A DNA stretch of 64,000 bases from a virus: positions 38,397 through 102,396 of IMG/VR virus record IMGVR_UViG_3300030098_005194. The stretch is one strand, 5' to 3'. A program made the translations under genes and the position numbers. The notes under the pieces were generated by a model. The model did no database searches. It was given only the letters and a program-made list of their open reading frames with translations, and was not told the origin of the DNA. Positions 26,763 to 63,852 of this stretch are shown in pieces. Positions within the stretch are counted from its first letter, which is position 1. Each line of letters opens with the position of its first letter.

Positions 26763-26767
26763 TAAAA

Positions 26768-27886
26768 TCACAGCATCGCATCAGCAGGTAGGAAAGTCAT
26801 TGTATAGTTGTAAATGGCCTCACCAGCATCATATATTATGTCCATAGACGAGATGCCCCCTTGAATGCCCGTGAAGTCATTTGACTCATCGAACTCAACT
26901 CCTGCGGGTTTTGCGTTCGTGGAGTCCTTCTCATTCTTATTATAGAAACCAGTGGGCATGAAGAAGTTCTTGGCAGTGTACTCATTGTTACCGGCTTCTA
27001 TTTTGCTATTGTAGGGAATTTGTATTCCTACTATGTAATCGCTACCAGAACCACCTGAAATAATATCAGGTATAAATTCAAAATCGAAAAGTTCATTATA
27101 ATAAGTAGATATATCTTCAAGAGCTACTTTCCTGAGCGTTCTGCTACTGTTATTGACTATGGAATACAAGTCCTGAGCCTTGTCCCCTGCTGACTTCTGT
27201 TCAGCATCTCTACCACCTGAAAAACTCTCTATTTTTGGTGGATAGAAATTATACCCTGAATTTGAAAATGTAGGAGTAGATTTGCTATTACCAGCTTTTC
27301 CATTAGTTACTTGCTTAATCAAGACGCCTGAATCAGTTTGGGAATTGCCATCCTTATCCAATGCGTCGTATAGTGAGGCTGTATAGAGTGAGGAATGCTG
27401 GTCATTTATGGCTTGACTAACAGCAGTAGCTAACTGTGTTGCAGTAGTGCTAGTAGTATTGATTTTTAATACATTAGTGGACGTATTGTAATTAGTAGTA
27501 ACATCAGTGTCTTTTGTAAGAGTTATAGTAGAAATTGTTCCATTTGTGGATTGTAAGGTTATATTGTTAGTAGTTGAACCGAATGAAGAATACCAAGCGC
27601 CTAGATTATTAGATGAGACGAAACTTTGGTTTTGTGTGTTAACATTGAAATTTATCTTAGCTTCAGCAGCGGCTGCTCCTGTGGCTTGAGTATCATCAGA
27701 AAAGAAACCATCTATTCTGATTATGGCTTTGTTTATGTTCAAGTCTAAGGCAAGGCGCTGACTGCCAGCGAAGGGCATTGAGTTCGGCCCAAATTCTCTT
27801 TCAGTAGACAGTGCTATCTGAGTGGCATTCAGGGATATCAAACCGCCGTCCTCACGAACCAAACGGATTGGCGTCCCAGTGGCCAT
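26768..27886 (-). CDS. putative distal tail (Dit-like) protein with insertion
   Basis: Follows tape-measure-like gene; N- and C-terminal tube-like segments flank an Asn/Thr-rich insertion. Confidence 0.5.
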   Translation of the reverse strand: MATGTPIRLVREDGGLISLNATQIALSTEREFGPNSMPFAGSQRLALDLNINKAIIRIDGFFSDDTQATGAAAAEAKINFNVNTQNQSFVSSNNLGAWYSSFGSTTNNITLQSTNGTISTITLTKDTDVTTNYNTSTNVLKINTTSTTATQLATAVSQAINDQHSSLYTASLYDALDKDGNSQTDSGVLIKQVTNGKAGNSKSTPTFSNSGYNFYPPKIESFSGGRDAEQKSAGDKAQDLYSIVNNSSRTLRKVALEDISTYYNELFDFEFIPDIISGGSGSDYIVGIQIPYNSKIEAGNNEYTAKNFFMPTGFYNKNEKDSTNAKPAGVEFDESNDFTGIQGGISSMDIIYDAGEAIYNYTMTFLPADAML

Positions 27887-39670: not shown

Positions 39671-42600
39671 TCAAGAATCGTTAGACCGAGAGGCTATTTT
39701 CTTTCTTTTTGGATAGTCTTCCGGCTTTTCAGGGTCTTGTTCTGGTCTTTCCTTCATATCATAATCCGGTAGAGTTGCCTCATTAGCCAACTTAGTGGGA
39801 CCTCTAGGACTGTCTATGTCACTACCAACGTCTACCCCTAGACCCTTACCCGCTGTCATTGGAAAATGTCCTTTTTCTAGAGTGTCTAGGATTTTCTCTA
39901 TTTTTTCCAAGGCTTCTAGAGTGCTAGGTTTGAGAAGAATATTCTGGTCCTCGTTTGGTTTTAGGACGCCTCCGCTCTGTCTGCCTATTCTCTTAGCATC
40001 CTCCTCGCTTATTCCCTCATCCTCTTCTTTATCGTCTTCATCTTCTTCAACGATTTCTTTTATTTTCCTTTTTTCTGCTTTGAGCATCTGTTGGAAAGCG
40101 GGCTCCCAGTATTTTTCCAGACTCTTTGCTAGTATCATCGTGTAATCCCGGTCTTTGAGGCCACCCAAAGCCGAACGTGGATTTTCCAAGCTATCCTCCA
40201 CTATGTCATACTTGAGTATGTCATGGTCAAAGTGCAGTATGAAGACCTCCCCATCTATCTCCATACCAAATGGCACATGGTAGTCATCATCGGATTTTGT
40301 CATTAGTATCCACTTCGGATGCTTCTCTTCTCCCTTCATGTAAGTGGATTTAGCATCCCTGAGTAGTAGCTTTGAGCCCTTATTCTCCCTCTGTAGGAAT
40401 TTTATCGCATCGCTCAAACCATCATCATCGGTGACTTTCAGATTGAACGGTCCGGGCACGAAAACGTCCTCATTGCTATCGAACTGCCCACGTAGTAGCT
40501 TTATCCTCTCCCTAGTGGGCATATCAGTAACATCGGTATCGTCGTAGTGCATGATATCGAATATGTGCAAACCAGAGCTGTTAAGCACAGCATCCATGAC
40601 ATAGTTGTTCTTCCCTATTTTTCTAAGGGAGCTTCTCATACCATCGCTTGTACCAACATCCTCATTGTCATCATCCTTGACCTCTATCCTATTCGACTTC
40701 CTAGTTACTTTCACTCTAGTGCCCTCTTCCATCACAGAGACAACCCATTCCCCAGTGAAACCCCGTAGCTCTTGCAGGTCCTCCATGTCGAATATCTTGT
40801 GATAGGGCTCTATTAGTGGCATTTCCTTTGGTAAGGACTTAGCTATCTCATGTGGGACCTGCAATCCTGACATTGGGTTGCTTTCCGATACCCTCTCCAT
40901 GTTGGAAGTGGTGCTTGGTAACATAGCCTCATTGACACCATTGACTTGGAAATAAGCATCCATCTGATTGTAAGAACCCTCTTGAAAGTGTTCCATCAAT
41001 TCTTTTATTACTGGCTCACTTGGCGGTACCGCTGGGCCAGCGCTGGTATTTGTCCCATACTCCATATTTCCATCGTAGCCTAAATTAAGCGAAGCAGAGG
41101 GTGCAGGTAGTTCCATACTCATTTGTAGTTGAAGACCTGCACTTGTGTAACGGGACCCGATTATGGCATCCGAATTTGGGTTAGTGACTGGACCTATCTT
41201 GGCATCGCCCATTTTTATCGGACGCTTCAAATTAGTGCCTGTATCACCAAATTGGTCCAGTGTCATCTGTCCTTCAGGCATAGCAGGAGGAGGCGTTGGT
41301 GCTGCCACCCTCGCCTCTGGATTGAAAAGAACTAGACTGTTGGCCTTTCTCTTGGCTCTGGCCATGGCCCACTCATAACGAAGTCTTTCTGCACCTTTGC
41401 CTTTATCCTCATTACCATGTATGTCTTTAGGTAAGTTACTCAAAGAAAGACCGTGTTGTATAGCAGTGTTGCCTTTGTGTGCCATGCTGAGTTTCATGTA
41501 ATTGTTATTTATCGAATTGTAATGCTCATTATTGTTATTAAAATCGTTTTTGTGATTGTCAGGAAGTTTAAGACCACGGATTTGACCCCTATAGCGTTTT
41601 AACTCATCCTCCATCAATTCATGGGCTCTCATTGGGTCATCTTTCATCCCATCATCGTCAAAGAGATGGAAGTCCTCGTTAGCGTGTGCTGCAAGTTGAG
41701 CGGTAGTCATTGCATAATGAGCGGGCTTGCCCTCCAGACTCTCTAGGAGTTCCCGCATGTACTCCCTGTATCCGGGGTTATCGTAGGGTAATCCCATGCC
41801 TATCAAACTCGCTGTGACATGCATATCTTCGACTTTTCCACTCTCTGGGAAACTAAGCAGAGTGCCCTCTTTCTCAAGCACATTGGCTTTTCGACGGAAC
41901 ATGTCGCCACCGACCATGGCATCTATCGTCTGCTCATCAACAGCATCCCCAATCATGATGTCCCTGATACTTTGACCATGGAAGCTGTGAGGCATGTGCT
42001 TCATAATCAACTCAGCATCATGCATGGCTTGGGATAGGTCAGCCACGGTTTGCTCAGGATTATTAGGGTCAAACAAGTTAGGATTTATCTCTAGCATAGC
42101 AGGTATGGTTATGTTCTTGGCAACTTCCATTCTAGCTCTTTCTTCAGCTTCTGCTCTTCTTTCTTTTTGTACAAGTGTATCCTTATTAAAGGAATTAAGT
42201 TTAGCTCGTAAATTAGATTGTTGCGTGTGTATGCGTCCCTTCAGTTCATCTATCAACTCTTGAGAGGCATCCTCGCCTGATAGCTCAATCTCCTCCAGCT
42301 CGCTTTGAAGCTCCGCTATCCTCTTTGTGTCTTCTATGCCCAAAGAGCCACCTAAAGCAAAAAGAGCTTTCTCAAACGCTGAGTATCCACCCTCTCCATC
42401 ATTTTCAAAAGGAAAACCGTGTTTGCCTTCAAGCATCTCATTGACTGGTATTCTCATCACAGGCGAGCCGAGCCTCCTCCTACCAGTGTTAGGGTCAATT
42501 GACCCGAACTTGTATTGGGCACCAGACATTAGATACTCACGCATTATCTCAGAGGAGTTATGTGCCTTCTTGCTATCCAGAGCCTCTGATTTTGTGTTAC

Positions 42601-44881
42601 CTGTTTTGGTTCCGAACTCATGATATTGATTCCTATGTATACCTCTTTTTCTACCATCTTTAGACCTTAGAAAACCAACACTGTCTCTGGTTATTTCAGC
42701 TCTTGGGTTCCTGCTCCTTGACCAGAAGGTAGTGGCTCTTGGCGTGAGTGAATGAGCGGTATCGCTACCATTAGCCCTGTTTCTTGGTTTTTTGTCACCT
42801 AAATCTACATGACTGGTACCCAAGCTCTGGTCGTGCATGCTCATTATCTCGGCAGGACTGAAGCTCTCGCCTCTCTCTCTGACAACGTGGTGCATGGCGC
42901 CCAAGAAGCCCGACATGTCTGGTCTGGGTACGAAGAAGCCATTCTCATCCATTTCGCCAAACAAACCCGGTGCGATACTATTCAGCATGTCAAAGAAAGT
43001 AGTGGATTCCATGGGATTGCTACCAACCTGCAAGTCATGTGCCCAGTAATCAGATAGTCCTCTCAAAGTCCCATTTTTCTCTATGAAGTGATTTCTTATT
43101 TCTTCGGGTGCATCCCTTATGTCCGGGCCCGCACTCTTGGCGAACACGGCATTGGCATTGGCTATGTCCTTGCTGTCACGAGCTAGTGACATTCCATCTC
43201 TATACATCTCCTCTAACTGGTTGATGTAGTCATCTGCCTTCATGTTCTCATGAGCGAGGGGCTTTTTACCCTCGTCAGTTAGAAGCTCAGAGAGGGGATG
43301 CTCCTTCAGATGCTTCTTCAACTGGGGTATGGTGAAATTACTAACGGGAGCATAATCCTCTACCCTCAAAACTTCTCTAAGAGCCTCCTTCTCATCCATT
43401 CCTTTTTCTATTCGCTCGTCTATTGCATCTCGTATTTTCTTAGTGCGTTTTTCGCCATAGATGGGTATGTGTGTTAATTTTTGGTCGCCCTGTAATTCTA
43501 GTAGCTCATTATAATGGTTCAATAAGGAGTCGAACATGTTTCCATGTACCCCATGGTCTATTTTTGCTAATAGACTACGAATTGGCTCCGTTTCACTACC
43601 AGTGTACTCTGTGCCATCCAGCTCATCGCTTTCCAAGTGTTTAGCTAGATTGGGCTGTCCCCGGTTATGGGGCATTTGGCTGTGGAGATACAAAGGCGTC
43701 ATTCTCTTCTGAAAGTTTCTCCTTAGTCTTCCAAGTGGTATTTCAGTGCCATCATCGAGCTTTATCTTGTCGCTTGTGTTTCCCTTGTTCTCCTTAAGAT
43801 GCTCTATGACTTTGGTTCTCTCAACAGGACTGAGCCATTCCAAGCCAAGGCCATATCCAAGAAGTCCAAGTCTGTGTGGGTGTTGCCTCTCAGTAGGAAC
43901 CTTTCTCTGAACGCTCTCTGCTACGCGAGAGCCCTCTTGTCTCTCCCCTGCTCTTTTGGGAAAAAGCTTGCTATAGATGTCATCATATTCTATTTTTTCT
44001 TCTTCAAAATTTCTACCCTGCCATAATTCAGCTGCTTTCTCAAGGTGCATTTCCCTGATATCCTTATCAGAGGCGCCTTGGGATTTAGCCTTGTCAATCA
44101 TCTCTTGATTTTGACTTGACCACTTTGTGAAAGCCCTCTCATACAGACCCTCTTGAAAAGCACCAGAAGTACCTACTTGCTCAGAAATGGTTCTATTTGA
44201 GTCGTTGGTGGTTAACCTGCCTAAGAAACCATGGGTAATCTCATCATCCATATCAGCTCTTTTTGATTTTCTGATTTGGCCTATGATTATCGGATTACGT
44301 AAATTATCGTAATGTGTCTCATGTGCCCTCTCCGCATCAGCATGCGAGGATGCAACGCTGTTTCCATCGTCGTCTTTTCTGACATAACCCAAGAGTTTCT
44401 CAACCATTCTAGAATTACCAGTAGAGCTGTTCTTCTTGCGTAGTGGGTGTATCGATTCATGGAAATGATGATGTTTGTAATTGCTATCACCGGGAACGAC
44501 CCTTGGGAAGAGCGAGGAAGCTAGCTCGATATTCTCATTGTCAATTAACTCATTCACATGCCTGTGGCTGGCAACAGCGGGACCAACAGTTCTTCTGCTT
44601 ATTCTGCCTTTTTTGTCGTAGTCATACCCCTCATCAGCACGCCCGCCAAACGCTAGCTCTGCTGAGAGGTCACCGATGGTTTTTTTGTACAACAACATCG
44701 TGCTGGCTTCATAGCAGAAATCATCAACAGGGTTGTTCTGTAATATCATTTCCTTATTCATTATGTTTCGTAGACTATCCATGTAGGCAGTAGCCTCTTC
44801 AGTGTAATCATCACAAGAAACTATGCTCTTGAGTAAATCATCCCTAGCGCGAAGATGAATGACATAATCGTTCTCTTGCAC
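39671..44881 (-). CDS. 1736-aa putative internal head polyprotein with degenerate ATP-dependent DNA ligase domain near C-terminus
   Basis: EWVVSVMEEGTR / YVMDAVL / HIFDIMHYD / ERIKLL / LLLRDAKSTY / KW align with ligase motifs I, III, IIIa, IV, V; lies between portal and protease. Confidence 0.75.
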   Translation of the reverse strand: MQENDYVIHLRARDDLLKSIVSCDDYTEEATAYMDSLRNIMNKEMILQNNPVDDFCYEASTMLLYKKTIGDLSAELAFGGRADEGYDYDKKGRISRRTVGPAVASHRHVNELIDNENIELASSLFPRVVPGDSNYKHHHFHESIHPLRKKNSSTGNSRMVEKLLGYVRKDDDGNSVASSHADAERAHETHYDNLRNPIIIGQIRKSKRADMDDEITHGFLGRLTTNDSNRTISEQVGTSGAFQEGLYERAFTKWSSQNQEMIDKAKSQGASDKDIREMHLEKAAELWQGRNFEEEKIEYDDIYSKLFPKRAGERQEGSRVAESVQRKVPTERQHPHRLGLLGYGLGLEWLSPVERTKVIEHLKENKGNTSDKIKLDDGTEIPLGRLRRNFQKRMTPLYLHSQMPHNRGQPNLAKHLESDELDGTEYTGSETEPIRSLLAKIDHGVHGNMFDSLLNHYNELLELQGDQKLTHIPIYGEKRTKKIRDAIDERIEKGMDEKEALREVLRVEDYAPVSNFTIPQLKKHLKEHPLSELLTDEGKKPLAHENMKADDYINQLEEMYRDGMSLARDSKDIANANAVFAKSAGPDIRDAPEEIRNHFIEKNGTLRGLSDYWAHDLQVGSNPMESTTFFDMLNSIAPGLFGEMDENGFFVPRPDMSGFLGAMHHVVRERGESFSPAEIMSMHDQSLGTSHVDLGDKKPRNRANGSDTAHSLTPRATTFWSRSRNPRAEITRDSVGFLRSKDGRKRGIHRNQYHEFGTKTGNTKSEALDSKKAHNSSEIMREYLMSGAQYKFGSIDPNTGRRRLGSPVMRIPVNEMLEGKHGFPFENDGEGGYSAFEKALFALGGSLGIEDTKRIAELQSELEEIELSGEDASQELIDELKGRIHTQQSNLRAKLNSFNKDTLVQKERRAEAEERARMEVAKNITIPAMLEINPNLFDPNNPEQTVADLSQAMHDAELIMKHMPHSFHGQSIRDIMIGDAVDEQTIDAMVGGDMFRRKANVLEKEGTLLSFPESGKVEDMHVTASLIGMGLPYDNPGYREYMRELLESLEGKPAHYAMTTAQLAAHANEDFHLFDDDGMKDDPMRAHELMEDELKRYRGQIRGLKLPDNHKNDFNNNNEHYNSINNNYMKLSMAHKGNTAIQHGLSLSNLPKDIHGNEDKGKGAERLRYEWAMARAKRKANSLVLFNPEARVAAPTPPPAMPEGQMTLDQFGDTGTNLKRPIKMGDAKIGPVTNPNSDAIIGSRYTSAGLQLQMSMELPAPSASLNLGYDGNMEYGTNTSAGPAVPPSEPVIKELMEHFQEGSYNQMDAYFQVNGVNEAMLPSTTSNMERVSESNPMSGLQVPHEIAKSLPKEMPLIEPYHKIFDMEDLQELRGFTGEWVVSVMEEGTRVKVTRKSNRIEVKDDDNEDVGTSDGMRSSLRKIGKNNYVMDAVLNSSGLHIFDIMHYDDTDVTDMPTRERIKLLRGQFDSNEDVFVPGPFNLKVTDDDGLSDAIKFLQRENKGSKLLLRDAKSTYMKGEEKHPKWILMTKSDDDYHVPFGMEIDGEVFILHFDHDILKYDIVEDSLENPRSALGGLKDRDYTMILAKSLEKYWEPAFQQMLKAEKRKIKEIVEEDEDDKEEDEGISEEDAKRIGRQSGGVLKPNEDQNILLKPSTLEALEKIEKILDTLEKGHFPMTAGKGLGVDVGSDIDSPRGPTKLANEATLPDYDMKERPEQDPEKPEDYPKRKKIASRSNDS

Positions 44882-49518: not shown

Positions 49519-50994
49519 TCACGGCACCATCCACCCGCTGGATTTAGAGTTACCGTCAAACCAGCCGTCAAAGTTCTCCATTACATCATCAAGAAGAACA
49601 ACCGAGCCCTTGAACTCCTTAGTTGCCCAGTTAGCGAGAGCCAACCCCATAGCCAAGTCGTCATGAGTGCCAACACTTTCAAGTCGGCCATTTTTCTGCA
49701 TACCAAACCTATTGAGTTCTTGCTCAAGTTGATGAGTGAATTTGCGGCTCTTTTCATCACCATATGGAGTTTTAATATGGCCTTGCTCAAAGGCTAAAAG
49801 AAGTGACATGAAAAGCGATTCCTTTCTTGTTCTAGTAGTCATGAAAACTTTGATTGGCATGTCAGAAGCCATCTCCCTCATCTCAGCTTCAAGCATTCTT
49901 TGGAAGTTATTTCCCTCAAGTTCTATCAAATCAGGCTGGAACTTATTGTTTAGAATGACCATCATTCTTTTCTGAGCCATTGATGACATACCTCTCTCAT
50001 GCACAGCGTGTATTATCTGCTTATGTGGTTCATTAGGTAACATTCTGAGAACTACCATTGCTGTGAAATCTGCGTTTTTATCCGATGATATTGCGGGGTC
50101 ATGTCCTATGAAGTGTTGACCAAAGACACCATTAGGCTCTCCTTCCTCGTTGTATTCTGTGTCGGCTCTTTCAAGCAACACCAAGTCATTGTCACGAGCA
50201 AGCTCAAGTATGTCCATTGGAAACATACTCGCAACATCGTGAATCGGCTCGCATAGATACTCACGGCTGAATTGTATAGCTGGCATGGAGAGTCTTCTTT
50301 GTTCTAGAGCCTCCAAGTCCCAACGCTCAGGCCAAAGTGCGACTCCCTCTCTGTTTATGGCCGGGTAAGTCTCGACTGTGAAAGTCTCCTTCTGCTCCAA
50401 CTCAGCGTACAAGTCGTTGTAGCTAAATGGCGTTCCGACCATCATTAGTCTGGAGCTGTGGTGGAGAACTGGGAGAAGAACACCGTAGAACCAGTCTGCG
50501 GTTCTTTGTAGTTCGGTTCCGCTTGTGCCCCAAAGAATATCGTCACACACAACTACATCTGGGTGGAAACCACGAGTTGCTCCACCAACGGACTTTGCCA
50601 TTATACGAGAGCCGTTTGTAAACTCAAAGTATGATTTAGCCCAAGGTTTGCCTTGTGGTTTGAGGTGTCTGAGAACATCCGAACTCTCTATGTTGTTACG
50701 AATGAATCTCATATGCTCAAGAGTTTGCTCAAGGGAGTGAGAGAATATCATGATGTGAGTACCGGGGTTGAATGCAGCTAACCACAAAGCGTAAGACATG
50801 AAAAACACGGATTTGCCGTGGTCACGAGAAGCCTTGACGCAGTAGTATTGGTTCTCATCAAGGCCCTTTCCCCAAGACTCATGATGATGATTGTAGAGAA
50901 ACTCAAGAACATCAGTGAAAAAATACCTGAAGGACTTCTTGGACATCTCCCTATCCATCTCAAGGACGAACTCTTTCATGTCCTCCTTGACCAA
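49519..50994 (-). CDS. terL: terminase large subunit
   Basis: Walker A ASRDHGKS, Walker B VVVCDD, VGTP motif, nuclease GHDPA and HDDLAM. Confidence 0.95.
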   Translation of the reverse strand: MVKEDMKEFVLEMDREMSKKSFRYFFTDVLEFLYNHHHESWGKGLDENQYYCVKASRDHGKSVFFMSYALWLAAFNPGTHIMIFSHSLEQTLEHMRFIRNNIESSDVLRHLKPQGKPWAKSYFEFTNGSRIMAKSVGGATRGFHPDVVVCDDILWGTSGTELQRTADWFYGVLLPVLHHSSRLMMVGTPFSYNDLYAELEQKETFTVETYPAINREGVALWPERWDLEALEQRRLSMPAIQFSREYLCEPIHDVASMFPMDILELARDNDLVLLERADTEYNEEGEPNGVFGQHFIGHDPAISSDKNADFTAMVVLRMLPNEPHKQIIHAVHERGMSSMAQKRMMVILNNKFQPDLIELEGNNFQRMLEAEMREMASDMPIKVFMTTRTRKESLFMSLLLAFEQGHIKTPYGDEKSRKFTHQLEQELNRFGMQKNGRLESVGTHDDLAMGLALANWATKEFKGSVVLLDDVMENFDGWFDGNSKSSGWMVP

Positions 50995-55408: not shown

Positions 55409-55809
55409 AATTCCAACCCCGCGTATACTGTTATTTCATCGTTTAGTTTCTTAGAAAGAGTTTCGTAGAATTCTTTCACAAAGCCCGGACTTACGAAACA
55501 TCTAGCCATGACTGTACAAATGTAATTAAAATTAGAAAGCTCCTTGTGTAATTTTTTTCTTATTTCAAACACATGTTCAGGCTCATCAGTCACATGTAAT
55601 GAGGCCATTAAATCAACTATGTTAACTATACAATCTTTATTTTCAAGACTGGTTTGAAAATTCTTTTCGGAATGATGATTGAACCTCTCAACCACTGTTA
55701 CGCAATAATCTAAGAAAAGTGGTAAATCATCATCATGTATATTTTTCTGAGATATGTAATGTCTATGACCGGGATGGCTAATCTGCATGAGGTCACTTAT
55801 AGAAATCAT
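55405..55809 (-). CDS. hypothetical protein
   Basis: ORF 55405..55857; likely start MISIS overlapping the TerS stop. Confidence 0.6.
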   Translation of the reverse strand: MISISDLMQISHPGHRHYISQKNIHDDDLPLFLDYCVTVVERFNHHSEKNFQTSLENKDCIVNIVDLMASLHVTDEPEHVFEIRKKLHKELSNFNYICTVMARCFVSPGFVKEFYETLSKKLNDEITVYAGLEL

Positions 55810-56483
55810 ATTTCCTCGCCCTCCGCTTCCAAAAGTGTCTCTCTTATCCGCTTCCAAGTTTCTGGACTCTCTTTAGCAAGCTCGACTTTCAAGACGTTTA
55901 TTGTTTGATTTATTTGCGGTGTATCGCTTTGTGTGCCCCAAGTATCGTTCATTTTCAATAAATCCTTAACAGACTCCCTAACCTCTTTGTGCAAACTTAC
56001 TGCGTCCCTGACAAAACCATCCTCATGTATGCTAGTCTCGTCTAAGAATTCATTCAATCTACTGTTCAATCTTTCTACATTACCACGTAGTACATTCATC
56101 TCATTTCCAACTTGGATGGCTACTTCAGTTGCCGCTGATTTTTGCACTAAAGGTTGAAAATGAAATTTCATGTGATGGAACACTGTATTCTCCGCTACAC
56201 CCAATTCCTCTGCTATGGAATCTGACTCCGAGCCATTTGTGAAATATCGATGTTCAAACTCTGCTCTATCTGGATGTGAACAAATTACACAACTAGGATT
56301 CGCAGCCATATGGTACTCACCCATATGGTTTCTAAAATGCCTGTCAGCGGTGTTTGCTCTCCAGCTCATTTCTTTGTCTAATTGCTTGGCAGTCATCTCG
56401 CCATTGAGCATTGCTTCTTCATAAATTGCTCTATCAGGATGCTGACAAAATGCACAAGAGCGCTTGGTGACCTGCTCGCCCAC
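55806..56483 (-). CDS. putative terminase small subunit (duplicated CxxC-HTH-H domains plus coiled coil)
   Basis: CAFCQHPDR...HFRNH and CVICSHPDR...HMKFH repeats; upstream of TerL. Confidence 0.65.
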   Translation of the reverse strand: MGEQVTKRSCAFCQHPDRAIYEEAMLNGEMTAKQLDKEMSWRANTADRHFRNHMGEYHMAANPSCVICSHPDRAEFEHRYFTNGSESDSIAEELGVAENTVFHHMKFHFQPLVQKSAATEVAIQVGNEMNVLRGNVERLNSRLNEFLDETSIHEDGFVRDAVSLHKEVRESVKDLLKMNDTWGTQSDTPQINQTINVLKVELAKESPETWKRIRETLLEAEGEEI

Positions 56484-56515: not shown

Positions 56516-56782
56516 CTATCTAGTGATTCTAGCATAAATAGACGTTAATAGCATAAATGAAATAAATACACCAATCATATATGACGATGTTTCAGATGCA
56601 GTTAACTCATTACCTCTAAAGAATAGAATACCTAGACCTAATAGAATTGCACTAATTAGTTGAACCATAACCATGTCAATGATTACACTTCTTTTCGGTG
56701 ACATCATTTGCATGGTCATTTCAGCAATTGGTTTTGGTATGTAATCCGTAGGACTTCCTGCTCCGCTCATCATTTTAATCAC
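56516..56782 (-). CDS. small two-TM membrane protein
   Basis: Two hydrophobic helices (VIIDMVMVQLISAILLGLGILFF; YMIGVFISFMLLTSIY). Confidence 0.7.
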   Translation of the reverse strand: MIKMMSGAGSPTDYIPKPIAEMTMQMMSPKRSVIIDMVMVQLISAILLGLGILFFRGNELTASETSSYMIGVFISFMLLTSIYARITR

Positions 56783-57387
56783 CTCAATCCGAATGCGCTT
56801 CTTATCATTCCACCAGCTGCGCTTCCGGCATTCTCAAGGAAAGTTTGGTCCTCCAAGGCTGCGCCCAGAGCGCCTTGAAGGAGACTTTGTTGTGAAATTG
56901 CTATTATTCTATCACGCTCTTGTTGAGCCATGGTAACAGCTTGTTGCGATGCATTTTGCATATTACTTAGTTGTGCTATTATGTTTTCAGCACTTAGAGT
57001 CTGTAGGTCAGATGGAAGAGACTGTAAATCCATTTTCATAACTCCCTCATCATCTAATTTGAAAGAACAGTTCTTTAGAATGTTAAGTATTGAAAAAGCA
57101 GAGATATTACTCAACATTTCTACAAATATAGGCATATTCTGACTAATAATGAATCTATCAATAGGTTGTATGGTACCAAGCATAGATGCTAGAATCTCAG
57201 TATCACTAGGTGGTGCGACTGGAGCATTGTAGTATTGCTGATTTACTCCCATACCACCCATCATACCATTCATAAAATTGTTCTGAGCCCCCATCATGCT
57301 ATTTTGTTGATATCCATTTTGCATACCAGAGACACCAAGAGAAAGGCCACTTTGCTGTGTGTTGTTTGAAGTTATGCCCAAACTCAC
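56779..57387 (-). CDS. hypothetical protein (Q/N/M/G-rich N-terminus, helical core)
   Basis: Coupled ORF in GTPase operon. Confidence 0.65.
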   Translation of the reverse strand: MSLGITSNNTQQSGLSLGVSGMQNGYQQNSMMGAQNNFMNGMMGGMGVNQQYYNAPVAPPSDTEILASMLGTIQPIDRFIISQNMPIFVEMLSNISAFSILNILKNCSFKLDDEGVMKMDLQSLPSDLQTLSAENIIAQLSNMQNASQQAVTMAQQERDRIIAISQQSLLQGALGAALEDQTFLENAGSAAGGMIRSAFGLR

Positions 57388-58358
57388 TGTGCCACCTCCT
57401 GTGTTGGCGGTAGAGGTGTTTGGGTTTGAGGCTGTTGGTTGAGAAGGGCTTGGAAAGCCGGTGTGGGCATAGATGCCTCTAGTAACTCCTTCTGGAACAT
57501 TCTCATATCAAACTGAACCATGGTGATGTCATTATTGCCAGTTTCAGGATTTGGAATATGCCAAACATTAATTCCTTTAGATTTGATTGCGTCTTTCTCT
57601 ATTTCAGTAAAGAAACTCTCATATTTCTGAACTAAGCTATGTGTAGGACCTTGTTTTTGAGACATGATGGATACAGGAACAGTAACTAAACTAACTCCTT
57701 TCTTCATCTTATCGCGGAATCTAGAAGGTTTCATCTCATCTTCTCTCTCCTGTTCAGCTTCCCATTTGCATAATAGATGATACAAATGTAGATGCTCTGG
57801 GCAGTAAGTGCCCTTCATTCTTCTACCACTAGTGACTCCCTCACGAGCCACAAACGCTTCAGTCTGTCCAGTTACAGGATTTTGCCAATACATATCCCAC
57901 AGACTTCTTCCTGTTTCCTCATCAGTTATACGTGCGTAAAGATTGTCGTACTCAATAAGTTCCTTAACATTACACCCATCAATAACACAAGTACCTGTGT
58001 CTTTAGTATACCTGTATTTACTACCGAGCCATCTTCTAGGGTCTAATATAGAGCGTTTTGTGGGCCTAAGTAATTTGTAAGCCTGTTTTATGTCTTGCTT
58101 TCTAGCTTTTCTAGGGTCTGGATGTGTACTAGGATAAAAATTCACTTTGGGAACTTCAAGGTTTTTCTGTTGACCCATAGCTTGCATTTGCTGTTGTGCA
58201 ACAGCTTGTTCAACCAACGCAGCGTGTGAAAGATTTTGGTTTCCTTGTTGAGACAAGGCTAGCATAGCTGCCTCGTTCATTTGTGAAAGCGACTGCGTTG
58301 GTTGTAGTCTTTGTCCAGTCACTTGGCGATACATGTTGTCTGGGATATCAAGCACCAT
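57384..58358 (-). CDS. hypothetical protein with CxxxxC...CxxH zinc motif
   Basis: CVIDGC and YCPEHLHLYH; likely start MVLDIP. Confidence 0.65.
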   Translation of the reverse strand: MVLDIPDNMYRQVTGQRLQPTQSLSQMNEAAMLALSQQGNQNLSHAALVEQAVAQQQMQAMGQQKNLEVPKVNFYPSTHPDPRKARKQDIKQAYKLLRPTKRSILDPRRWLGSKYRYTKDTGTCVIDGCNVKELIEYDNLYARITDEETGRSLWDMYWQNPVTGQTEAFVAREGVTSGRRMKGTYCPEHLHLYHLLCKWEAEQEREDEMKPSRFRDKMKKGVSLVTVPVSIMSQKQGPTHSLVQKYESFFTEIEKDAIKSKGINVWHIPNPETGNNDITMVQFDMRMFQKELLEASMPTPAFQALLNQQPQTQTPLPPTQEVAQ

Positions 58359-58545
58359 CGGAGACACCTCGTGGCTTTACCTTGATGAACAATTCCCCAG
58401 ATTCATCGGATGCGACCTTCCATTCTACCTTTTGTCCGGATTTCAACTCAAACTGTTCAACCAGCCACATAGGAAAAGTGGTTCTGAGAGAGTTGCTTTT
58501 CCCACCTGTGGACACAAGAACTGTGGTGGAACCGCCGCCAGCCAT
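58348..58545 (-). CDS. AbrB/MazE/SpoVT-family DNA-binding protein
   Basis: SLRTTFPMWLVEQFELKSGQKVEW swapped-hairpin signature. Confidence 0.85.
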   Translation of the reverse strand: MAGGGSTTVLVSTGGKSNSLRTTFPMWLVEQFELKSGQKVEWKVASDESGELFIKVKPRGVSDGA

Positions 58546-58580
58546 GTTAATCGCACCATGTCATATATCAAAAAGGTCAC

Positions 58581-59294
58581 TCATGAGGTCAGAAGTTCTA
58601 TCATAGTAGGTTCGACGTTCCAACCTATCCTCGTAGCCATAAAGGAACGTTTAGTGGGTATGCCCGCTTTTTGTAGTCTAATGAGGTCATCTCTGAATGG
58701 GTCGAATATCTTGTGTTCGCCTATTCTTCCCTGTGGCCATAATCTACTAGCAGTCTCATCAAAGAACCTATCCGCCTTGTTAGCCACTAGCATAATCACC
58801 TTTGGGGAGTATTTCCTTCCCTTCCACCAAGAACGTAGATTTCGATATCTCCAGTTTCTAGTGGTAAGCACATCCACTAAAAATTTGAAACCTGCTATTT
58901 GGTCAAGACTTTCCTTCCCCCCTTTGAATGCTCGGTCATCAAACATGAAAACTACAGCCTCCACCTGTCTGGCGACCATATCATCTATCCAAAGATTCCA
59001 GTATTCTTTCTGACCGCCCATATCAGAAGAGTGAACTAATCTAGTGTGATTGTCATATTTCACTCTTTTAGCCGTGGGTTTAGGTAGAATGTATTGACTT
59101 AACAACTTGTAATGCTTAGTCCTATCCTCTTCAGGTATCTCCTCCATCTCACCGGGTGTGGTCATGTATCTATCGAGAGTGGTTTTTCCAACTAAAGAAG
59201 CACCATAGATTCCCACTCTTCTTGGCCTCCAAGAGTCATAGAGGGTTCTACCCCAAATGGCTGCGCCAACTAAGGCGCTTCCAGCCATGCTCAT
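58581..59294 (-). CDS. Arf/Sar1-like small GTPase
   Basis: G1 GASLVGKT, G3 DMGGQ, G4 NKAD, G5-like MAT; N-terminal hydrophobic/amphipathic helix. Confidence 0.85.
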   Translation of the reverse strand: MSMAGSALVGAAIWGRTLYDSWRPRRVGIYGASLVGKTTLDRYMTTPGEMEEIPEEDRTKHYKLLSQYILPKPTAKRVKYDNHTRLVHSSDMGGQKEYWNLWIDDMVARQVEAVVFMFDDRAFKGGKESLDQIAGFKFLVDVLTTRNWRYRNLRSWWKGRKYSPKVIMLVANKADRFFDETASRLWPQGRIGEHKIFDPFRDDLIRLQKAGIPTKRSFMATRIGWNVEPTMIELLTS

Positions 59295-59552
59295 CTAAGG
59301 CACCAGACCAATCAACCAATTACCAAAATCTGAGATTAAGCCGTAGCCCCATTCTACGGTCATTTCCCAAAGACTGTATGCACTATTTGCCTCTACAGCA
59401 CTAACAGCTAATGCGGTAGCGCCACTGATGATGATTGTTCTAAGCCAACCAACGCCCCATTCGTATGTATTATCGAATGTATTAGCCAAGTGCATGGCTC
59501 TCAATGTTTCTTCTACGGAATCATCCTTTGGGGTTTTGAATATGCGTCCCAT
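59295..59552 (-). CDS. small membrane-associated protein
   Basis: Hydrophobic helix WLRTIIISGATALAVSAV and Trp-rich amphipathic C-terminus; GAGAGG SD before MGRIF. Confidence 0.65.
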   Translation of the reverse strand: MGRIFKTPKDDSVEETLRAMHLANTFDNTYEWGVGWLRTIIISGATALAVSAVEANSAYSLWEMTVEWGYGLISDFGNWLIGLVP

Positions 59553-59563
59553 TGGAACCTCTC

Positions 59564-60196
59564 TCAATTGTTTTTGTATCTAAGGTCTGGGGTCCCGTCC
59601 TTCTTTAAACGCACTTTAGACTTCTTTTCCTCTTCTACCAAATCATCAGCCATTTGATTTAGGGAAAGAGTAGTGACGCCGGGATTTTGCACAACTCTAG
59701 GCGCAGTATACTCTTGCTGATTGTTGCCTAATTTATCAAGACCTAAGCTCATTACTGTGTTCTGTGGCTTCGGTGGAACTGGTACAGTAATTGTTTCCTG
59801 CATTAAAAGACTAGGATTTTGCTTGTAAGCCATTAATTCTCTTTCTAATTGCATCTCCTGTATTCTAAGTTCCATGTCGATTCTTCTTTGCTCATGCTCT
59901 GTTTGCATGCTTCTAAGCCTAATTTCCCTCTCACGTTGTAGATTCTGAGTATTAACTCTCACCTTCATAGACTGTTCAAAGAACATTTTGAAAACGTAGT
60001 AAGCTAAAATCTGAACTGCTAAAGCACCCATTGCGTATGTCATACCATTTACTATGTGGTCGCCATCACCTGCTGGCAACCATATCCCTGAGTCAAAGAC
60101 TCCCACTGCTACTCCTATTAATGCTGATTGTGCTAAAATTAAACCTGTCAATCTTAGTTCAGCGTTATCAACCTGACCATCGTTGTTCCAATCCAT
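59564..60196 (-). CDS. two-TM membrane protein with long coiled coil and C-terminal KKDGTPDLRY motif
   Basis: Two TM helices; Q/R/E-rich coiled coil; N-terminal DWNNDGQVD. Confidence 0.75.
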   Translation of the reverse strand: MDWNNDGQVDNAELRLTGLILAQSALIGVAVGVFDSGIWLPAGDGDHIVNGMTYAMGALAVQILAYYVFKMFFEQSMKVRVNTQNLQREREIRLRSMQTEHEQRRIDMELRIQEMQLERELMAYKQNPSLLMQETITVPVPPKPQNTVMSLGLDKLGNNQQEYTAPRVVQNPGVTTLSLNQMADDLVEEEKKSKVRLKKDGTPDLRYKNN

Positions 60197-60279
60197 GTGA
60201 ACTGACCTCGTACTGGGGCACAGTAGGGGACATCTTAAGACTTTTGACCTAATTATAGGTTAGATTGGAGGATGTTTTC

Positions 60280-60347
60280 AATTATTCATTATTCTTTCTA
60301 TACACTATAATAATTATTATTTCATCTAAAGGAATAATAGAATAATT
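60280..60347. repeat. AT-rich dyad: (ATTATTC)x2 - ATAATAATTATTAT palindrome - (GAATAAT)x2
   Basis: Inverted arms centred on the 14-bp palindrome 60307-60320. Confidence 0.8.
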
Positions 60348-60351
60348 AGAA

Positions 60352-60672
60352 TTATACGATTTTAACCCAATTAGACTTAACAATCGTCGGTTTCCCACCA
60401 ACACCCTGCTTTTTGGCCCGCTTTCTTTTTGTTGCGGCCCGTTTCTGTCCACTTGACATGCTTCCAGATGTCTTCGGAGTCTTGCTCGATACCTTTACTG
60501 AGGGTCTGCATTTCGGGTAGCCCTTTCCTGATAATTTTGCCTTTGACCGTCCACAAGGAGGATGTTTGCCTGTCTTCGGGTCCTTCCTCGATACGTCCAC
60601 CCACTTCTCCTTGAACCAACGATTCAGGTTCTTCACAACTAACGTGTTGTGGCAGGTGCAGCGTTCGCTCAT
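60352..60672 (-). CDS. small basic protein (RWFKEKWVD...CGRS...YPKCRP family)
   Basis: CTCH...LVVK|N leader; very basic. Confidence 0.7.
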   Translation of the reverse strand: MSERCTCHNTLVVKNLNRWFKEKWVDVSRKDPKTGKHPPCGRSKAKLSGKGYPKCRPSVKVSSKTPKTSGSMSSGQKRAATKRKRAKKQGVGGKPTIVKSNWVKIV

Positions 60673-60863
60673 TTCTTCTTCCCCTTCTTGCCTCTGAATT
60701 TTCCTCTACAATACTGTACGGCCCATCCATTAGCATAGGCAGAGGGATAAACTTTGAATTTTCTTTTTGCTGCCGCTTTTCCTTCCGGGCAGAGTTTCTT
60801 TTCCAAAACATCCCAAGCACCGTTCATACCTACGCAGTGACCACAACCACAAGAACCTATCAT
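60669..60863 (-). CDS. small basic protein (KRKFKVYPSAYANGW family)
   Basis: CGCGHC + MNGAWDVLEK leader. Confidence 0.7.
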   Translation of the reverse strand: MIGSCGCGHCVGMNGAWDVLEKKLCPEGKAAAKRKFKVYPSAYANGWAVQYCRGKFRGKKGKKK

Positions 60864-60877
60864 CTAATATCCCACCG

Positions 60878-61159
60878 TTATTTTTTCTTATTATCCATTT
60901 CTTTTAATTCAGGATGATATAGCATTTTTACTTTCTTGGCGTCTTTTTTAATAGATTTTCCATCTACTAAGACTTCTATTGGATATGGTTCATGGTCATC
61001 ATACCAATAAGCCATTTCATAGGCTCCATTTTTCAATAGTTTTACAATTAAACCCCTTTTGTGTTTTTTATCATCTGCTTCAAGAATCATTTCCTTACCT
61101 TGTGGAAGAATCAAATCAGCTTCCTTTCTCTTTTTTAATAAGTACCACCAGTCCGACAT
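60878..61159 (-). CDS. small protein with WWYLLK leader
   Basis: Start MSDWW coupled to upstream stop (TGATG); AT-rich gene. Confidence 0.65.
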   Translation of the reverse strand: MSDWWYLLKKRKEADLILPQGKEMILEADDKKHKRGLIVKLLKNGAYEMAYWYDDHEPYPIEVLVDGKSIKKDAKKVKMLYHPELKEMDNKKK

Positions 61160-61911
61160 CAACAGTTCCACCTCTTCAATGCTGCACCTTTGGGAGTTAG
61201 TTTACCGTCCTTACTAGTTGGTCCCTTAGAACCACTCATACGAGCGCAGAATGACTTGCGCCTTTTGGCCCTCTTGCTTCCGGGTTTGAGTTTGGATGGC
61301 TTGGTTGTGACAGGTGGTTTTAGATTAGCGCCTGTCTCTCGCTTGAACTTAGCACGACCAGCAGCATTTAAGCCACCCTTTCTATGATGCCTCTTGGGAT
61401 TGTAACCGTGAAACGGCTTTGACTTCTTCTTTCCTTTTTCAAAAACAGAGTCCAAAAGAGCCATGGAAGCCTGTTGCATTGGTGTGCAACAATCACAGGT
61501 TTCAGATTTCAAAGTCAATGGCACAAGGTTCTGTCTAGGTATACCACCAGCTCTGACATTACTCTCAGTTCCAGCAAATACACCACCTGCTGGCTCTGCT
61601 TGTCTTACTGGTTCTGAAAGTCCCCCTGCTCTCACGCCAACCACGCCTACGCTACTCTGAGGTAAGCCTAGCTTTTTGGCTCTTTCTTGTGCAAACCTAA
61701 GTGCCAGCTCCCTATCAGGTGAAGTGTATGATATTTTTTCCTCTCCCCTTAGTGGTTTGGGAATGTAGCGTTTGGACCTACCTGTGGTTGGACCTCCCCT
61801 GATTCCCTCTTCCATAACTGCTGGCATATCAACAGTACCATGATATTCGCTAACTGGGCCCATGCTACTAGGAAAATCTTGATGAAACTCACCGAGTTCA
61901 GTCTGTCTCAT
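61159..61911 (-). CDS. two-domain protein: ADP-ribosyltransferase-like domain + basic SFCARM...WNC domain
   Basis: YHGT...GI...YTSPDRELALRFA...IP..NL ART pattern; internal tag; GGLNAAGR...RRKSFCARM...RWNC. Confidence 0.65.
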   Translation of the reverse strand: MRQTELGEFHQDFPSSMGPVSEYHGTVDMPAVMEEGIRGGPTTGRSKRYIPKPLRGEEKISYTSPDRELALRFAQERAKKLGLPQSSVGVVGVRAGGLSEPVRQAEPAGGVFAGTESNVRAGGIPRQNLVPLTLKSETCDCCTPMQQASMALLDSVFEKGKKKSKPFHGYNPKRHHRKGGLNAAGRAKFKRETGANLKPPVTTKPSKLKPGSKRAKRRKSFCARMSGSKGPTSKDGKLTPKGAALKRWNC

Positions 61912-63320
61912 CTTACTTTCACTCTCCTTAGAGTACCTCGATTCTTGAAATGTCTGGCTCTATTAGCATGCTCAGGCTCAAGAGTCAACTTACCGCCTTG
62001 TGTGTGGCTCACATCCATGTGGTCGCCAGAGCCGTAAATGCCTCTTTTTCTTCTTTCAGCATGTAATTCACGCTGGTACTTTCTTCTCTCAGGGGTCTTT
62101 TCATACCTCTTGTCATACTCCAACTTACGCCTCATAGCTTCTGGTGACTTACGTTCTTTGAGCAACTGCATTGCGATGTCCATTGGTTCGCTACGGGTAA
62201 AACGAGTAGCATCATTAAATGGAAATCCATAGAAAGAAGGGCCTTCATCATCCTGTATTCTAGCCTGATTAACTCTTATTGGTAGTTCATTGTATTGTCC
62301 CAATACTAATGCTCTTAAAAGCGCAATATCCCTAACGGATAAGTCTCCTAAGTCTCCAGTATTGATTCCCCGCTCGACAGCGTTGATATGGCCTGATGTG
62401 AACTCAACATCGCCTTCTTTTGTGCCGGTTGTTTCAGTCTGTTCAGGTAATCCTTGCCACCATGGACCGTATTCACCGGGGTCGTATCTCCCATCAATAT
62501 ACGCCTCTCTGTAAGCGTTTGCTCTTCGATTAGATTCATCGGATAAAGATGAGTCGCCTTCCAAACCCAACTCCGATACGTGACCCGGATGAATATCGGG
62601 AGCGCGTTCACCGAATACTTCCTCATATGATTCACGGGGAAAATCATCTTCTTTGAGCAACTGCATTGCTATGTTCATTGGTTCCCCAGTTCGGATGGTA
62701 CGATTTTGCCTTCTCATGGCCGCCAACCTCTTCATCTGTTTCTTCGACATACCGTGTGCATTTACTACTTTATCGACACTCATAGCGGCAGCCTTGAATG
62801 GTTGAGGTGCCTCGTGATGCATCTCCGAGCGACGTAGCATGACTGTGTTTAGCTCAGGTTTCATGTTATTTTTTCTATGTGGTCTTACGATAGCAACAAT
62901 TGAATCACCGTTGCTCTTTGTGTAAGTTTCATCTGGTATTCTATGTTCATCCAAAATGTGAGTTCTGATTGCTAAGTTTCTTGGCGCACCGGGTTTGTAA
63001 AGACCGTATTCATCCAAAAAATCTCCCATAGCGCTTGTTATTCTATCTCTAACCTCTTGTTGTTCTCTCTCATTTACTACTCTTTCTCTGTCAGTCAATC
63101 TCTCATGAGAGTGAGGAGCGAAGAAATTTTGACCCAAATTAACAACAGGGGGTCTAGAAACATCGACTTGTGGTGCAGTAACTGGGTTTGGTTTTGCATA
63201 TTGCATCTGCCAAGCTCTTTCTGCTGCATCCAAATCCTTCTCTTCATTACCAATTTGTGTGTAATTAGGAGGTAGCATCTCCTTCAACAAGAGCATCCAA
63301 GCTTGCTCAAAAGGGTTCAT
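61908..63320 (-). CDS. three-module polyprotein (RNase-like / acidic / HNH-like) separated by repeated tags
   Basis: MNPFEQAWMLLLK; two EPM(N/D)IAMQLLKE; C-terminal DHMDVSH...HANRAR. Confidence 0.7.
   Translation of the reverse strand: MNPFEQAWMLLLKEMLPPNYTQIGNEEKDLDAAERAWQMQYAKPNPVTAPQVDVSRPPVVNLGQNFFAPHSHERLTDRERVVNEREQQEVRDRITSAMGDFLDEYGLYKPGAPRNLAIRTHILDEHRIPDETYTKSNGDSIVAIVRPHRKNNMKPELNTVMLRRSEMHHEAPQPFKAAAMSVDKVVNAHGMSKKQMKRLAAMRRQNRTIRTGEPMNIAMQLLKEDDFPRESYEEVFGERAPDIHPGHVSELGLEGDSSLSDESNRRANAYREAYIDGRYDPGEYGPWWQGLPEQTETTGTKEGDVEFTSGHINAVERGINTGDLGDLSVRDIALLRALVLGQYNELPIRVNQARIQDDEGPSFYGFPFNDATRFTRSEPMDIAMQLLKERKSPEAMRRKLEYDKRYEKTPERRKYQRELHAERRKRGIYGSGDHMDVSHTQGGKLTLEPEHANRARHFKNRGTLRRVKVR
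62154..62684. repeat. 36-bp direct repeat (62154-62189, 62649-62684; 34/36 identical) encoding EPMxIAMQLLKE
   Basis: ttctttgagcaactgcattgc(g/t)atgt(c/t)cattggttc. Confidence 0.9.
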
Positions 63321-63646
63321 TTTGCTCTCTCCTTGGTTTTCTTCTTTTGTTGCTCAATAAATCTCCTGTATATTGCAGCCTCACTGGTCTTGCCCATCTC
63401 CCTCGCCCTCTGCTCCATGGCTATCGCGGCTTGGGTCTTGTGAGCGTGACTGCGACTGCTGCCGCGTATCTTCGCCACCGACGCTCTGGCCTTCGCCGGG
63501 TCCTTGAAGCCGAGGCCGTGTATCGTGCCCTTTGGGTCTTCATCGGTATACAGGTCAGAGTGCTTTTTGGATTTCGCGGGCTGCCCCTTCTTGCGTGCTA
63601 TCCTCGGTCCCTTCAGCACAGTCCACGCTTGGTCGAAGGCGTTCAT
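63317..63646 (-). CDS. basic protein (KKHSDLYTDEDPKGTIHGLGFKD family), GC-rich gene
   Basis: MNAFDQAWTVLK|G leader; GGTGAG SD. Confidence 0.75.
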   Translation of the reverse strand: MNAFDQAWTVLKGPRIARKKGQPAKSKKHSDLYTDEDPKGTIHGLGFKDPAKARASVAKIRGSSRSHAHKTQAAIAMEQRAREMGKTSEAAIYRRFIEQQKKKTKERAK

Positions 63647-63852
63647 TTTCTTCTCACCACTCTGACAAGTCCAGTTTGTCTACGCATCTTTGGTCTAATG
63701 TTACCGCGAGATAAATTTCGGGCATACCTAGCCCTAGTTTTGCGATTTTTGGTTTTTCTAGCAAGCCTCTGCACTTTGGCTTGTGCTAATCTTTTTGGCC
63801 TATCTTGTATGTAAGAGCGACCCTTGTAGACCAATACCTCACGGTCACCCAT
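63643..63852 (-). CDS. small Arg/Lys-rich protein
   Basis: VLVYK|G leader; protamine-like composition. Confidence 0.65.
   Translation of the reverse strand: MGDREVLVYKGRSYIQDRPKRLAQAKVQRLARKTKNRKTRARYARNLSRGNIRPKMRRQTGLVRVVRRK

Follow-up and report, generated by a model that had tools for sequence, protein, structure and literature searches.

A virus-only small GTPase, remotely related to archaeal ArvA, belongs to a conserved membrane-protein module in marine magroviruses

Among the closest described counterparts of the system reported here is the vesicle machinery of Haloferax, in which the GTPase ArvA (OapA, the HVO_3014 family) drives vesicle budding, carries an N-terminal amphipathic helix, and is encoded in one operon together with ArvB (OapB) and a Zn-ribbon protein, ArvC (OapC) (PMC10927574). 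For the tailed viruses of archaea, the mechanism of egress is an acknowledged open question (PMC10791045). Here we describe a virus-encoded GTPase and the genes around it, located at positions 56516–60196 of a 64,000-nucleotide stretch of DNA (the window), which corresponds to bases 38397–102396 of the linear 102,396-bp IMG/VR record IMGVR_UViG_3300030098_005194 (estimated completeness 97%). The virus is a tailed magrovirus of about 102 kb that infects marine Poseidoniales archaea, and the window is the right arm of its genome. The genes are lettered A (210 amino acids, aa), B (90 aa), C (the GTPase, 237 aa), D (65 aa), E (327 aa), F (202 aa), G (88 aa) and H (225 aa).

An earlier note, made from the letters of this DNA alone, had described a cluster of seven open reading frames (ORFs) in this interval, and all seven were found at the coordinates claimed and co-oriented on the minus strand, which is the strand of every gene described below unless stated otherwise. 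Gene C (58581..59294) encodes a 237-aa small GTPase, as seen in its G motifs, its AlphaFold2 (AF2) fold and its profile comparisons. Each of the motifs that had been quoted for it could be located in the protein: G1, GASLVGKT (residues 31–38, 59181–59204); G3, DMGGQ (residues 91–95, 59010–59024); G4, NKAD (residues 172–175, 58770–58781); and G5, MAT (residues 219–221, 58632–58640). A switch I stretch, EIPEEDRT (59118–59141), was read from the sequence. The assignment as a small GTPase stands, with G1, G3 and G4 conserved and a G-domain fold in the model.

More than 500 protein clusters (at 90% identity) match this GTPase family, nearly all of them about 237 aa long and from marine metagenomes. 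This number, together with motifs that are kept down to 23% identity, places the GTPase observation beyond chance. In close relatives, G1, D91/G93/G94 and NKxD are conserved, with N172 and D175 invariant and K173 present in at least 90%. Among 24 sequences reaching down to 23% identity, residues G31, G36, K37, D91, G94 and N172 are invariant, K173 and D175 are found in at least 90%, and W102 is nearly invariant (also at least 90%). T59 is invariant in the close set and is a putative G2 residue. At G5, close members carry MAT and distant members SA(R/K/Q/L). The DxGGQ motif is indeed present in the window protein, but it does not hold as a feature of the family: the position of Q95 is occupied by Q, E, D, H or A, with the Gln replaced in many members, and one member reads DVPGQ. 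The proposed hydrophobic N-terminal helix (hydrophobic residues 4–26, 59217–59285 including the basic patch) fared better, as a hydrophobic N-terminus of about 15 residues followed by basic residues is kept in every lineage. At that length it would not make a full transmembrane (TM) segment, one distant member excepted.

No Pfam family matches the window GTPase at E ≤0.1, TIGR00231 gives 17.8 bits against a cut-off of 42.5, and scans of all cluster proteins against Pfam, PHROGs, NCBIfam and PADLOC returned none above any cut-off. Below threshold, the 24 members match Roc most often (16/24), followed by Arf (9/24, best E 0.0048) and MMR_HSR1 (7/24). Neither phmmer nor a profile hmmsearch against solved structures returned a GTPase match, Arf included. 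A profile search of 1.8 billion representatives yielded 82 clusters at E ≤0.001, mostly fragments; this library is unannotated, and the identities of the clusters were judged by alignment of the full-length ones that were fetched, which align over the whole protein as divergent family members. A tblastn search of the INPHARED phage collection, which is without the Aoguangviridae exemplar ON649702, gave no match to the GTPase. Among 151 Poseidoniales genomes the family was found in one, on a virus-like contig, and in the other 150 the viral profile had no match except one at chance level to a P-loop protein (E 0.0067). For the two most distant members, P0202 and P0160, a search of their context gave no viral loci. 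By these sequence comparisons, the GTPase founds a separate, virus-only family.

The nearest cellular relative of this family by profile search is ArvA, at a remote distance. With ArvA sequences collected beside OapB matches in archaeal genomes, we found that the viral profile has ArvA as its sole match (E 1e-4 to 4e-4, against 3.95 for the next best) in each of five ArvA-positive genomes, although proteins above the Pfam Arf cut-off are encoded in four of these. Alignment of the viral family with ArvA by hhalign (E 1e-12 to 4e-15) gave a probability of 97.8% in local mode, over the N-helix, P-loop and switch I, and 98.7% in global mode, with G1, G3, G4 and G5 in register. Control alignments gave 96–97% for archaeal small Arf/Rab-like GTPases (score 68 versus 88 for ArvA) and 83–91% for a KaiC-Arf class. 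In our reading, the N-terminal half of the viral GTPase is closest to ArvA, and its switch II resembles that of Arf, Rag and Galpha. The KaiC-Arf proteins, which served as a control set only, are an observation in themselves: they are proteins of about 390 aa in the ArvA-positive genomes (L096–L100 and similar) that join an N-terminal KaiC/RecA-like region, recognized by eye, to a C-terminal domain above the Pfam Arf cut-off.

ArvA was not found in any of 101 Poseidoniales genomes, nor OapB in any of 61; in a phylum-wide sample of 201 genomes, 95 have OapB. The virus would therefore bring a membrane-type GTPase into a host in which the searched genomes hold no cellular one. One explanation of the module takes up the link to ArvA, namely that it vesiculates the host rather than lysing it by providing the GTPase of ArvA type that the host is without, with host vesicles serving, for example, as decoys, for the spread of nucleic acid or for non-lytic release. 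The profile link is specific, the searched hosts yielded neither ArvA nor OapB, and over-expression of ArvA in Haloferax leads to more vesicles (PMC10927574). However, the viral genes include no counterparts of ArvB or ArvC, and knockout of ArvB cuts vesicle output in Haloferax about three-fold. The switch II region also differs, with DxGG and a short loop in the viral protein in place of the DTPG and some 23 further residues of ArvA. Tailed virions with a genome of 100 kb are not known to exit in vesicles, and we regard vesiculation as a quite improbable account.

The AF2 model of the GTPase is of moderate quality (predicted local distance difference test, pLDDT, 66.9; predicted template modeling score, pTM, 0.70), and Foldseek matched it to small GTPases only (Rab, Rac and Ras; probability 0.99–1.0), as weak matches. 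Comparison with 48,161 representative chains by VIA-align gave a best Z of up to 9.0 over about 145 residues. The head of the ranking (Z 7.7–9.0) is made up of LokiRagO, ARL10B, SRbeta, Arf1, Galpha, ARL15, Arl2, Arf6, an Asgard Arf and Sar1, with scores of 9.0 for LokiRagO and for Arl8/ARL10B, 8.6 for SRbeta, 8.5 for Arf1 and 7.6–8.0 for Asgard Arfs. Further down, at Z of about 7, come translational GTPases along with Rossmann-like folds that are unrelated, among them short-chain dehydrogenases and sugar epimerases. When the 1000 Foldseek candidates, many of them Ras, Rab or Rho proteins, were re-scored, the top 50 consisted of Rag, Arl/Arf, Galpha and SRbeta chains plus one GTPase of translational type, CysN (Z 7.2–9.0), with no Ras/Rab/Rho chain among these top 50 VIA-align matches. 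Because the differences in Z are small and the model is imperfect, this affinity to the Arf/Rag/SRbeta/Galpha fold is a lean and not proof. A protein-language-model search of the Atlas leans the same way, in that the first clusters to follow those of the viral family itself carry Arf.

The 237-aa protein is thus best described as a divergent G-domain protein of an Arf/ArvA-like kind. The more specific label of Arf/Sar1-like, given in the earlier note, survives in part: the N-helix, the Trp at +11 and the best structural matches speak for it, while the absence of any match reaching the Pfam Arf threshold and the variable Gln speak against it. The suggestion that the protein bears on the origins of the Arf family did not survive, as we found no link of the viral family to Asgard or eukaryotic Arf origins. 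These data also bear on the explanation that the protein is a cytosolic GTPase of the Era/EngB type, acting on ribosomes or another soluble target, with the membrane proteins as unrelated operon mates. Some members do show weak Pfam matches to MMR_HSR1 and EF-Tu, and relatives of ArvA are often annotated as Era-like. However, the best structural matches are of Arf, Rag and SRbeta types, the hydrophobic N-terminus is kept in every lineage, no KH or other RNA-binding domain is present, and the two TM proteins upstream remain constant across changed contexts. We consider a soluble Era/EngB-type role very unlikely.

The GTPase is not inherited alone. In 80 of 80 related IMG/VR loci, the gene order A-B-GTPase-(D)-E-F-G-H-(I)-J-K is kept, and across these loci the GTPase, at a median identity of 71%, is better conserved than any other gene of the cluster. 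Gene B is present in all 80 (median identity 60%), as are F and G; gene A is present in 77, missing only where the locus is truncated upstream, and gene D was found by tblastn in 73. Beyond these close loci, the module is found in three further lineages, L085/L086, L087 and P0144 (140 IMG/VR stretches), whose GTPases are about 35% identical, giving four lineages with that of the window. In all of the distant lineages, a TM protein of 135–258 aa and a small TM protein of about 72–77 aa (about 74 aa in P0144) precede the GTPase, and the profile of A itself has weak similarity to that of its P0144 counterpart (18% probability). Gene E follows the GTPase in all four lineages, directly so where D is missing, and aligns by hhalign at 96.7% with the protein in P0144 slot +1. 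Gene F is also found in L085, L086 and L087, and aligns at 90.1% (E 1.6e-6) with P0144 slot +2.

Other genes come and go. In L085, L086, L087 and the P0144 lineage, E comes after the GTPase with no gene D in between. Gene G is also found in L085/L086, with no counterpart in L087 (no tblastn match) and none detected in the P0144 lineage, and gene H has no match in L087 (tblastn) or the P0144 lineage (hidden Markov model, HMM). The flanks differ as well: in L087, a thermosome gene lies upstream of the module and an 846-aa ORF follows F, and in the P0144 lineage the module lies behind ORFs that we read as genes for the protease and the capsid, solely from where they lie and how long they are. Because the two TM proteins, the GTPase, E and F persist while the flanks differ, these form a five-gene core, with D, G and H as lineage-specific additions. 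Synteny in related viruses, proposed as a check on the earlier note, thus showed neighbors that are co-conserved even where the surrounding genes change. In all lineages, the module is co-oriented with the structural (late) genes.

This pattern of conservation is informative about a further explanation, in which the module serves host takeover, superinfection exclusion or counter-defense at the membrane, for example by keeping a second virus out or by shutting off a membrane process of the host. Exclusion systems typically pair small membrane proteins with a switch protein, and the module lies near the genome end, adjoining a variable region of small basic proteins. However, the GTPase is better conserved than any other gene of the region, at least four lineages keep the module as a fixed core, unlike fast-evolving exclusion or anti-defense genes, and PADLOC gave no matches. 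An exclusion or counter-defense role therefore seems rather unlikely to us.

Since the GTPase is always inherited with small membrane proteins and two partner proteins, it may be part of a late membrane switch. We tentatively propose, as a plausible reading that we would stop short of calling probable, that the module is a membrane-bound GTP switch of the late program that reshapes or breaches the membrane, most probably for virion release. Binding of GTP would expose the N-terminal helix, or fix it, on the host cytoplasmic membrane beside A and B (and G where present), and E and F would act as regulators or effectors at that site. The assembled complex would then reshape or breach the membrane late in infection, most probably releasing virions, with hydrolysis of GTP providing timing or a reset. 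The host in this scheme has no murein wall and, as far as the genomes searched indicate, no ArvA/ArvB vesiculation system of its own. We favor virion release for two reasons: archaeal tailed viruses lyse their hosts by a route still to be found (PMC10791045), and the genome has no second cluster of small membrane proteins. Pfam and PHROG scans gave no similarity to wall-degrading enzymes or holin families, although a complete holin/endolysin search of the window was not made. The bolder form of this idea is that the module is a self-contained membrane-remodeling machine, with an ArvA/Arf-like switch, membrane receptors and two effectors, that serves as the egress system of archaeal tailed viruses in hosts without ArvABC; we think this form unlikely.

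Several results weigh against a release switch and against the kinship with ArvA on which it draws. The residue in the place of the catalytic Gln varies, which makes the chemistry of hydrolysis uncertain. The N-terminal segment is short and weakly amphipathic (hydrophobic moment 0.22–0.37), and AF2 confidence is low there. Genes E and F have no recognizable fold or family, and the homology of A and B across lineages is weak in sequence and drawn from position and architecture, having been shown within the window's lineage only. The ArvA link comes mainly from 40–60 N-terminal columns, the reciprocal search with an ArvA profile was marginal (E 0.012–0.017), and in one genome other GTPases scored equally. 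No OapB (PF09846) was found in the viral genome at E ≤1, and when A, B, D, E, F and G were compared by hhalign with alignments of ArvB and ArvC (PF09845), every probability stayed below 1%. Finally, the module lies inside blocks of structural genes, a position equally compatible with a role in assembly.

This last point leads to the explanation that the module is an accessory to morphogenesis, organizing a place on the membrane where proheads, portals or tails are assembled or DNA is packaged, comparable to the membrane-initiated assembly of the T4 prohead, and has no role in release. The module is always co-oriented with structural genes and lies within or beside them; in the window it is upstream of H and of the J-K-TerL-portal block, and its translational coupling continues into H to K. 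On the other hand, the flanking structural genes change between lineages while the module stays constant, and E and F are unlike known head or tail proteins. No assembly pathway of a tailed virus is known to use a small GTPase. Our estimate for a morphogenesis role is low, though not negligible, and we continue with a late membrane switch as the preferred reading.

The layout of the cluster is that of a coupled operon. Genes E and F overlap by 4 nt, as do F and G, and gene B abuts the GTPase gene; the same coupling runs on downstream into H to K, where I/J and J/K also overlap by 4 nt. The limits of the cluster are therefore not set by coupling, and the operon goes beyond it. All seven genes are under purifying selection (rough dN/dS 0.10–0.30, with dS saturated). 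Upstream of gene A lies an AT-rich non-coding gap of 155 nt (60197..60351) with palindromes and TATA-like runs, and GAGGT is found 8 nt ahead of the gene A ATG at 60196. The sole 11-of-12 sigma-70-like match of the region falls in this gap, a match of limited meaning given that the host is archaeal. Judged from these features, the gap probably holds a promoter or marks where the transcription unit starts. From the module to the end of the genome, positions 60352–63852 (minus strand) hold small, very basic genes common to just 27–70 of the 80 related loci; this is a variable region flanking the conserved module.

The two genes ahead of the GTPase encode membrane proteins. Gene A (59564..60196), a 210-aa protein, combines a pair of hydrophobic helices with a charged stretch that resembles a coiled coil, and has a basic tail; its first TM segment spans residues 14–38 (hydropathy 2.04), and the second is clear in distant homologues. 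An EF-hand-type loop, DxNxDGxVDxxE (60152–60187), heads gene A in the window and in L005 only, and a similar DxDxDG loop occurs on a separate small ORF between G and H in L086 (6095–6379, which also has Cys pairs) and L085 (7040–7306). With the loop present in only 2 of 23 homologues, it was dropped as a functional feature of gene A. Gene B (59295..59567) encodes a protein of about 85–90 aa that has a conserved helix at its N-terminus, a single TM segment and a tail rich in Trp; translation probably begins at the internal ATG near 59552 (MGRIFKTP...). Its description as a small membrane protein is borne out by one clear TM segment in homologues, whereas the window copy falls below the hydropathy threshold.

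Downstream of the GTPase, gene D (58348..58545) encodes a 65-aa AbrB/MazE-like swapped-hairpin protein, assigned from a weak Pfam match and a motif, that is probably a DNA-binding regulator. The match to MazE_antitoxin (PF04014; E 0.014, 15.8 bits against a cut-off of 24.7) is below threshold, and the conserved SLRTTVPxW motif is consistent with the fold, so AbrB-like is a tentative name for it. D is dispensable and not a member of the core, being absent from the distant lineages. Gene E (57384..58367) encodes a putative Zn protein of 327 aa with a Q-rich N-terminus and a strongly conserved core with Cys/His ligands. The Zn motif reported earlier is backed by C127, C189, H192 and H197, which are invariant. 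Gene E has no Pfam, PHROG, PDB or Atlas match; its AF2 model (pLDDT 68.7) has a best VIA Z of 6.6, to helical bundles and at noise level, and returned no match in BFVD at E ≤0.001. A complex prediction of the GTPase with E residues 66–300 scored 0.00, which we count neither for nor against contact. Gene F (56779..57387), a 202-aa protein, has a low-complexity N-terminus rich in Gly, Met, Gln and Asn and a helical domain, with no family match in Pfam, PHROG or NCBIfam scans. Gene G (56516..56782) encodes an 88-aa protein with two TM segments (residues 30–58, hydropathy 2.47, and 68–87) and is the strongest hydropathy signal of the genome. Of about 103 ORFs in the 102-kb genome, only three reach a hydropathy peak of 2.0 or more, and both A and G are among them.

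Gene H (55806..56483), a 225-aa protein, carries two CxxC...HPDR and helix-turn-helix (HTH) repeats and a C-terminal coiled coil. The repeats are in tandem, each CxxC-x-HPDR followed by the HTH and HxxxH, and may form a Zn-stabilized HTH pair. Gene H matches Pfam HTH_20, GerE and Sigma70_r4 weakly, and GerE/NarL at E of about 0.04–0.06 by profile against PDB. The earlier note had placed the cluster just upstream of TerS, an identity we could not confirm, as the matches of this neighbor are of HTH type only, TerL (49519–50994) is four genes and about 5 kb away from H, and the link to TerS is not part of the core. Gene H could be TerS or a late regulator.

The genome around the module is that of a magrovirus. 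Its right arm, with minus-strand genes throughout, codes for TerL, portal, prohead protease and an HK97-type major capsid protein, and the same genome encodes a family B polymerase and a thermosome. The two-arm layout, size and gene set agree with published descriptions of magroviruses (PMC5434244, PMC10768690), which are reported to rank third in abundance among marine virus groups, behind SAR11 phages and cyanophages (PMC5434244). A related contig of 106 kb (NODE_2, locus L086) occurs in the Poseidoniales single-cell genome AG-422-I20, with the module, at 35% identity in its copy of the cluster, and homologues of H, I, J and K. A module-bearing contig of magrovirus size in a Poseidoniales single-cell genome is a direct linkage of virus and host, and supports the host assignment. 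Other module-bearing, magrovirus-like contigs are binned in metagenome-assembled genomes (MAGs) labeled Maricaulis sp. (L084), Parvibaculum sp. (L085) and Flavobacteriales (L087, 101 kb). The Maricaulis contig is 8.8 kb long and its GTPase is 100% identical to that of the window. These three contigs are almost certainly mis-binned viral DNA. The structural arm also holds two giant ORFs, of 5697 aa (9688–26781, minus strand) and 1736 aa (39671–44881, minus strand), which may encode a tail fiber or adhesin and a tape-measure or internal protein. In the left arm, a 369-aa protein (L002:13610–14719) has a protein-tyrosine-phosphatase domain (Pfam Y_phosphatase, E 1.9e-5).

As far as the magrovirus literature was open to search, it mentions no GTPase, and in the literature searched we found no link of ArvA to a virus-encoded homologue. 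Some members of the family already carry the JGI label 'GTPase SAR1 family protein', and a GTPase-like gene as such is therefore no novelty. The new elements are the definition of the family, its link to ArvA, the conserved five-gene module, and the contrast with hosts without ArvA. A virus-only GTPase tied to membrane proteins and two partners is a testable candidate for a membrane-directed late function, and it brings viruses into the recently described ArvA type of prokaryotic membrane GTPases. On present evidence, it has no bearing on the origin of eukaryotic Arf. The system is compact, and its five genes are open to rebuilding in a model archaeon or on liposomes.

Finally, we compared the module with three known kinds of system. 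Like the lysis cassettes of phages, such as the lambdoid holin/spanin genes, it places small integral membrane proteins in a late unit near head and packaging genes. However, the GTPase and the two soluble partners have no counterpart there, and the analogy is one of position only. Compared with the Arf/Sar1/Rag/SRbeta/Galpha group, the window protein shares DxGGQ and a hydrophobic N-terminal extension. The nearly invariant W102, 11 residues past the G3 Asp, is a likeness to Arf/Sar/Galpha, in which a Trp at this spacing is a motif, Arf1 included. The spacing from switch II to strand 4 is within 2 residues of that in Arf1. In contrast to Arf/Sar1 (PF00025), the viral family never rises above the Pfam Arf cut-off and matches Roc more often, its Gln, whose place in Sar1 is taken by His (DxGGH), is not conserved, the viral protein has no Gly2 for myristoylation, and its G1–G3 stretch is some 15–20 residues longer.

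The third comparison is with ArvA. ArvA differs in having DTPG(I) at G3 and an insertion of about 23 residues in switch II, whereas the viral proteins have DxGG(Q/E/D/H/A) and a short loop, as well as additional insertions ahead of G4 and in the G4–G5 stretch. The partners also differ, those of the virus being membrane proteins together with E and F. Both, however, are small stand-alone G domains in which an N-helix and basic residues come right before strand 1, and both operons carry a downstream gene for a Zn-binding protein. The two families have in common the pattern (I/V)G(I/V)YG..x.GKTTL, a switch I of EIPxExR, NKxD at G4, and a G5 of the type SA..G(W/Y)N(V/I)E.

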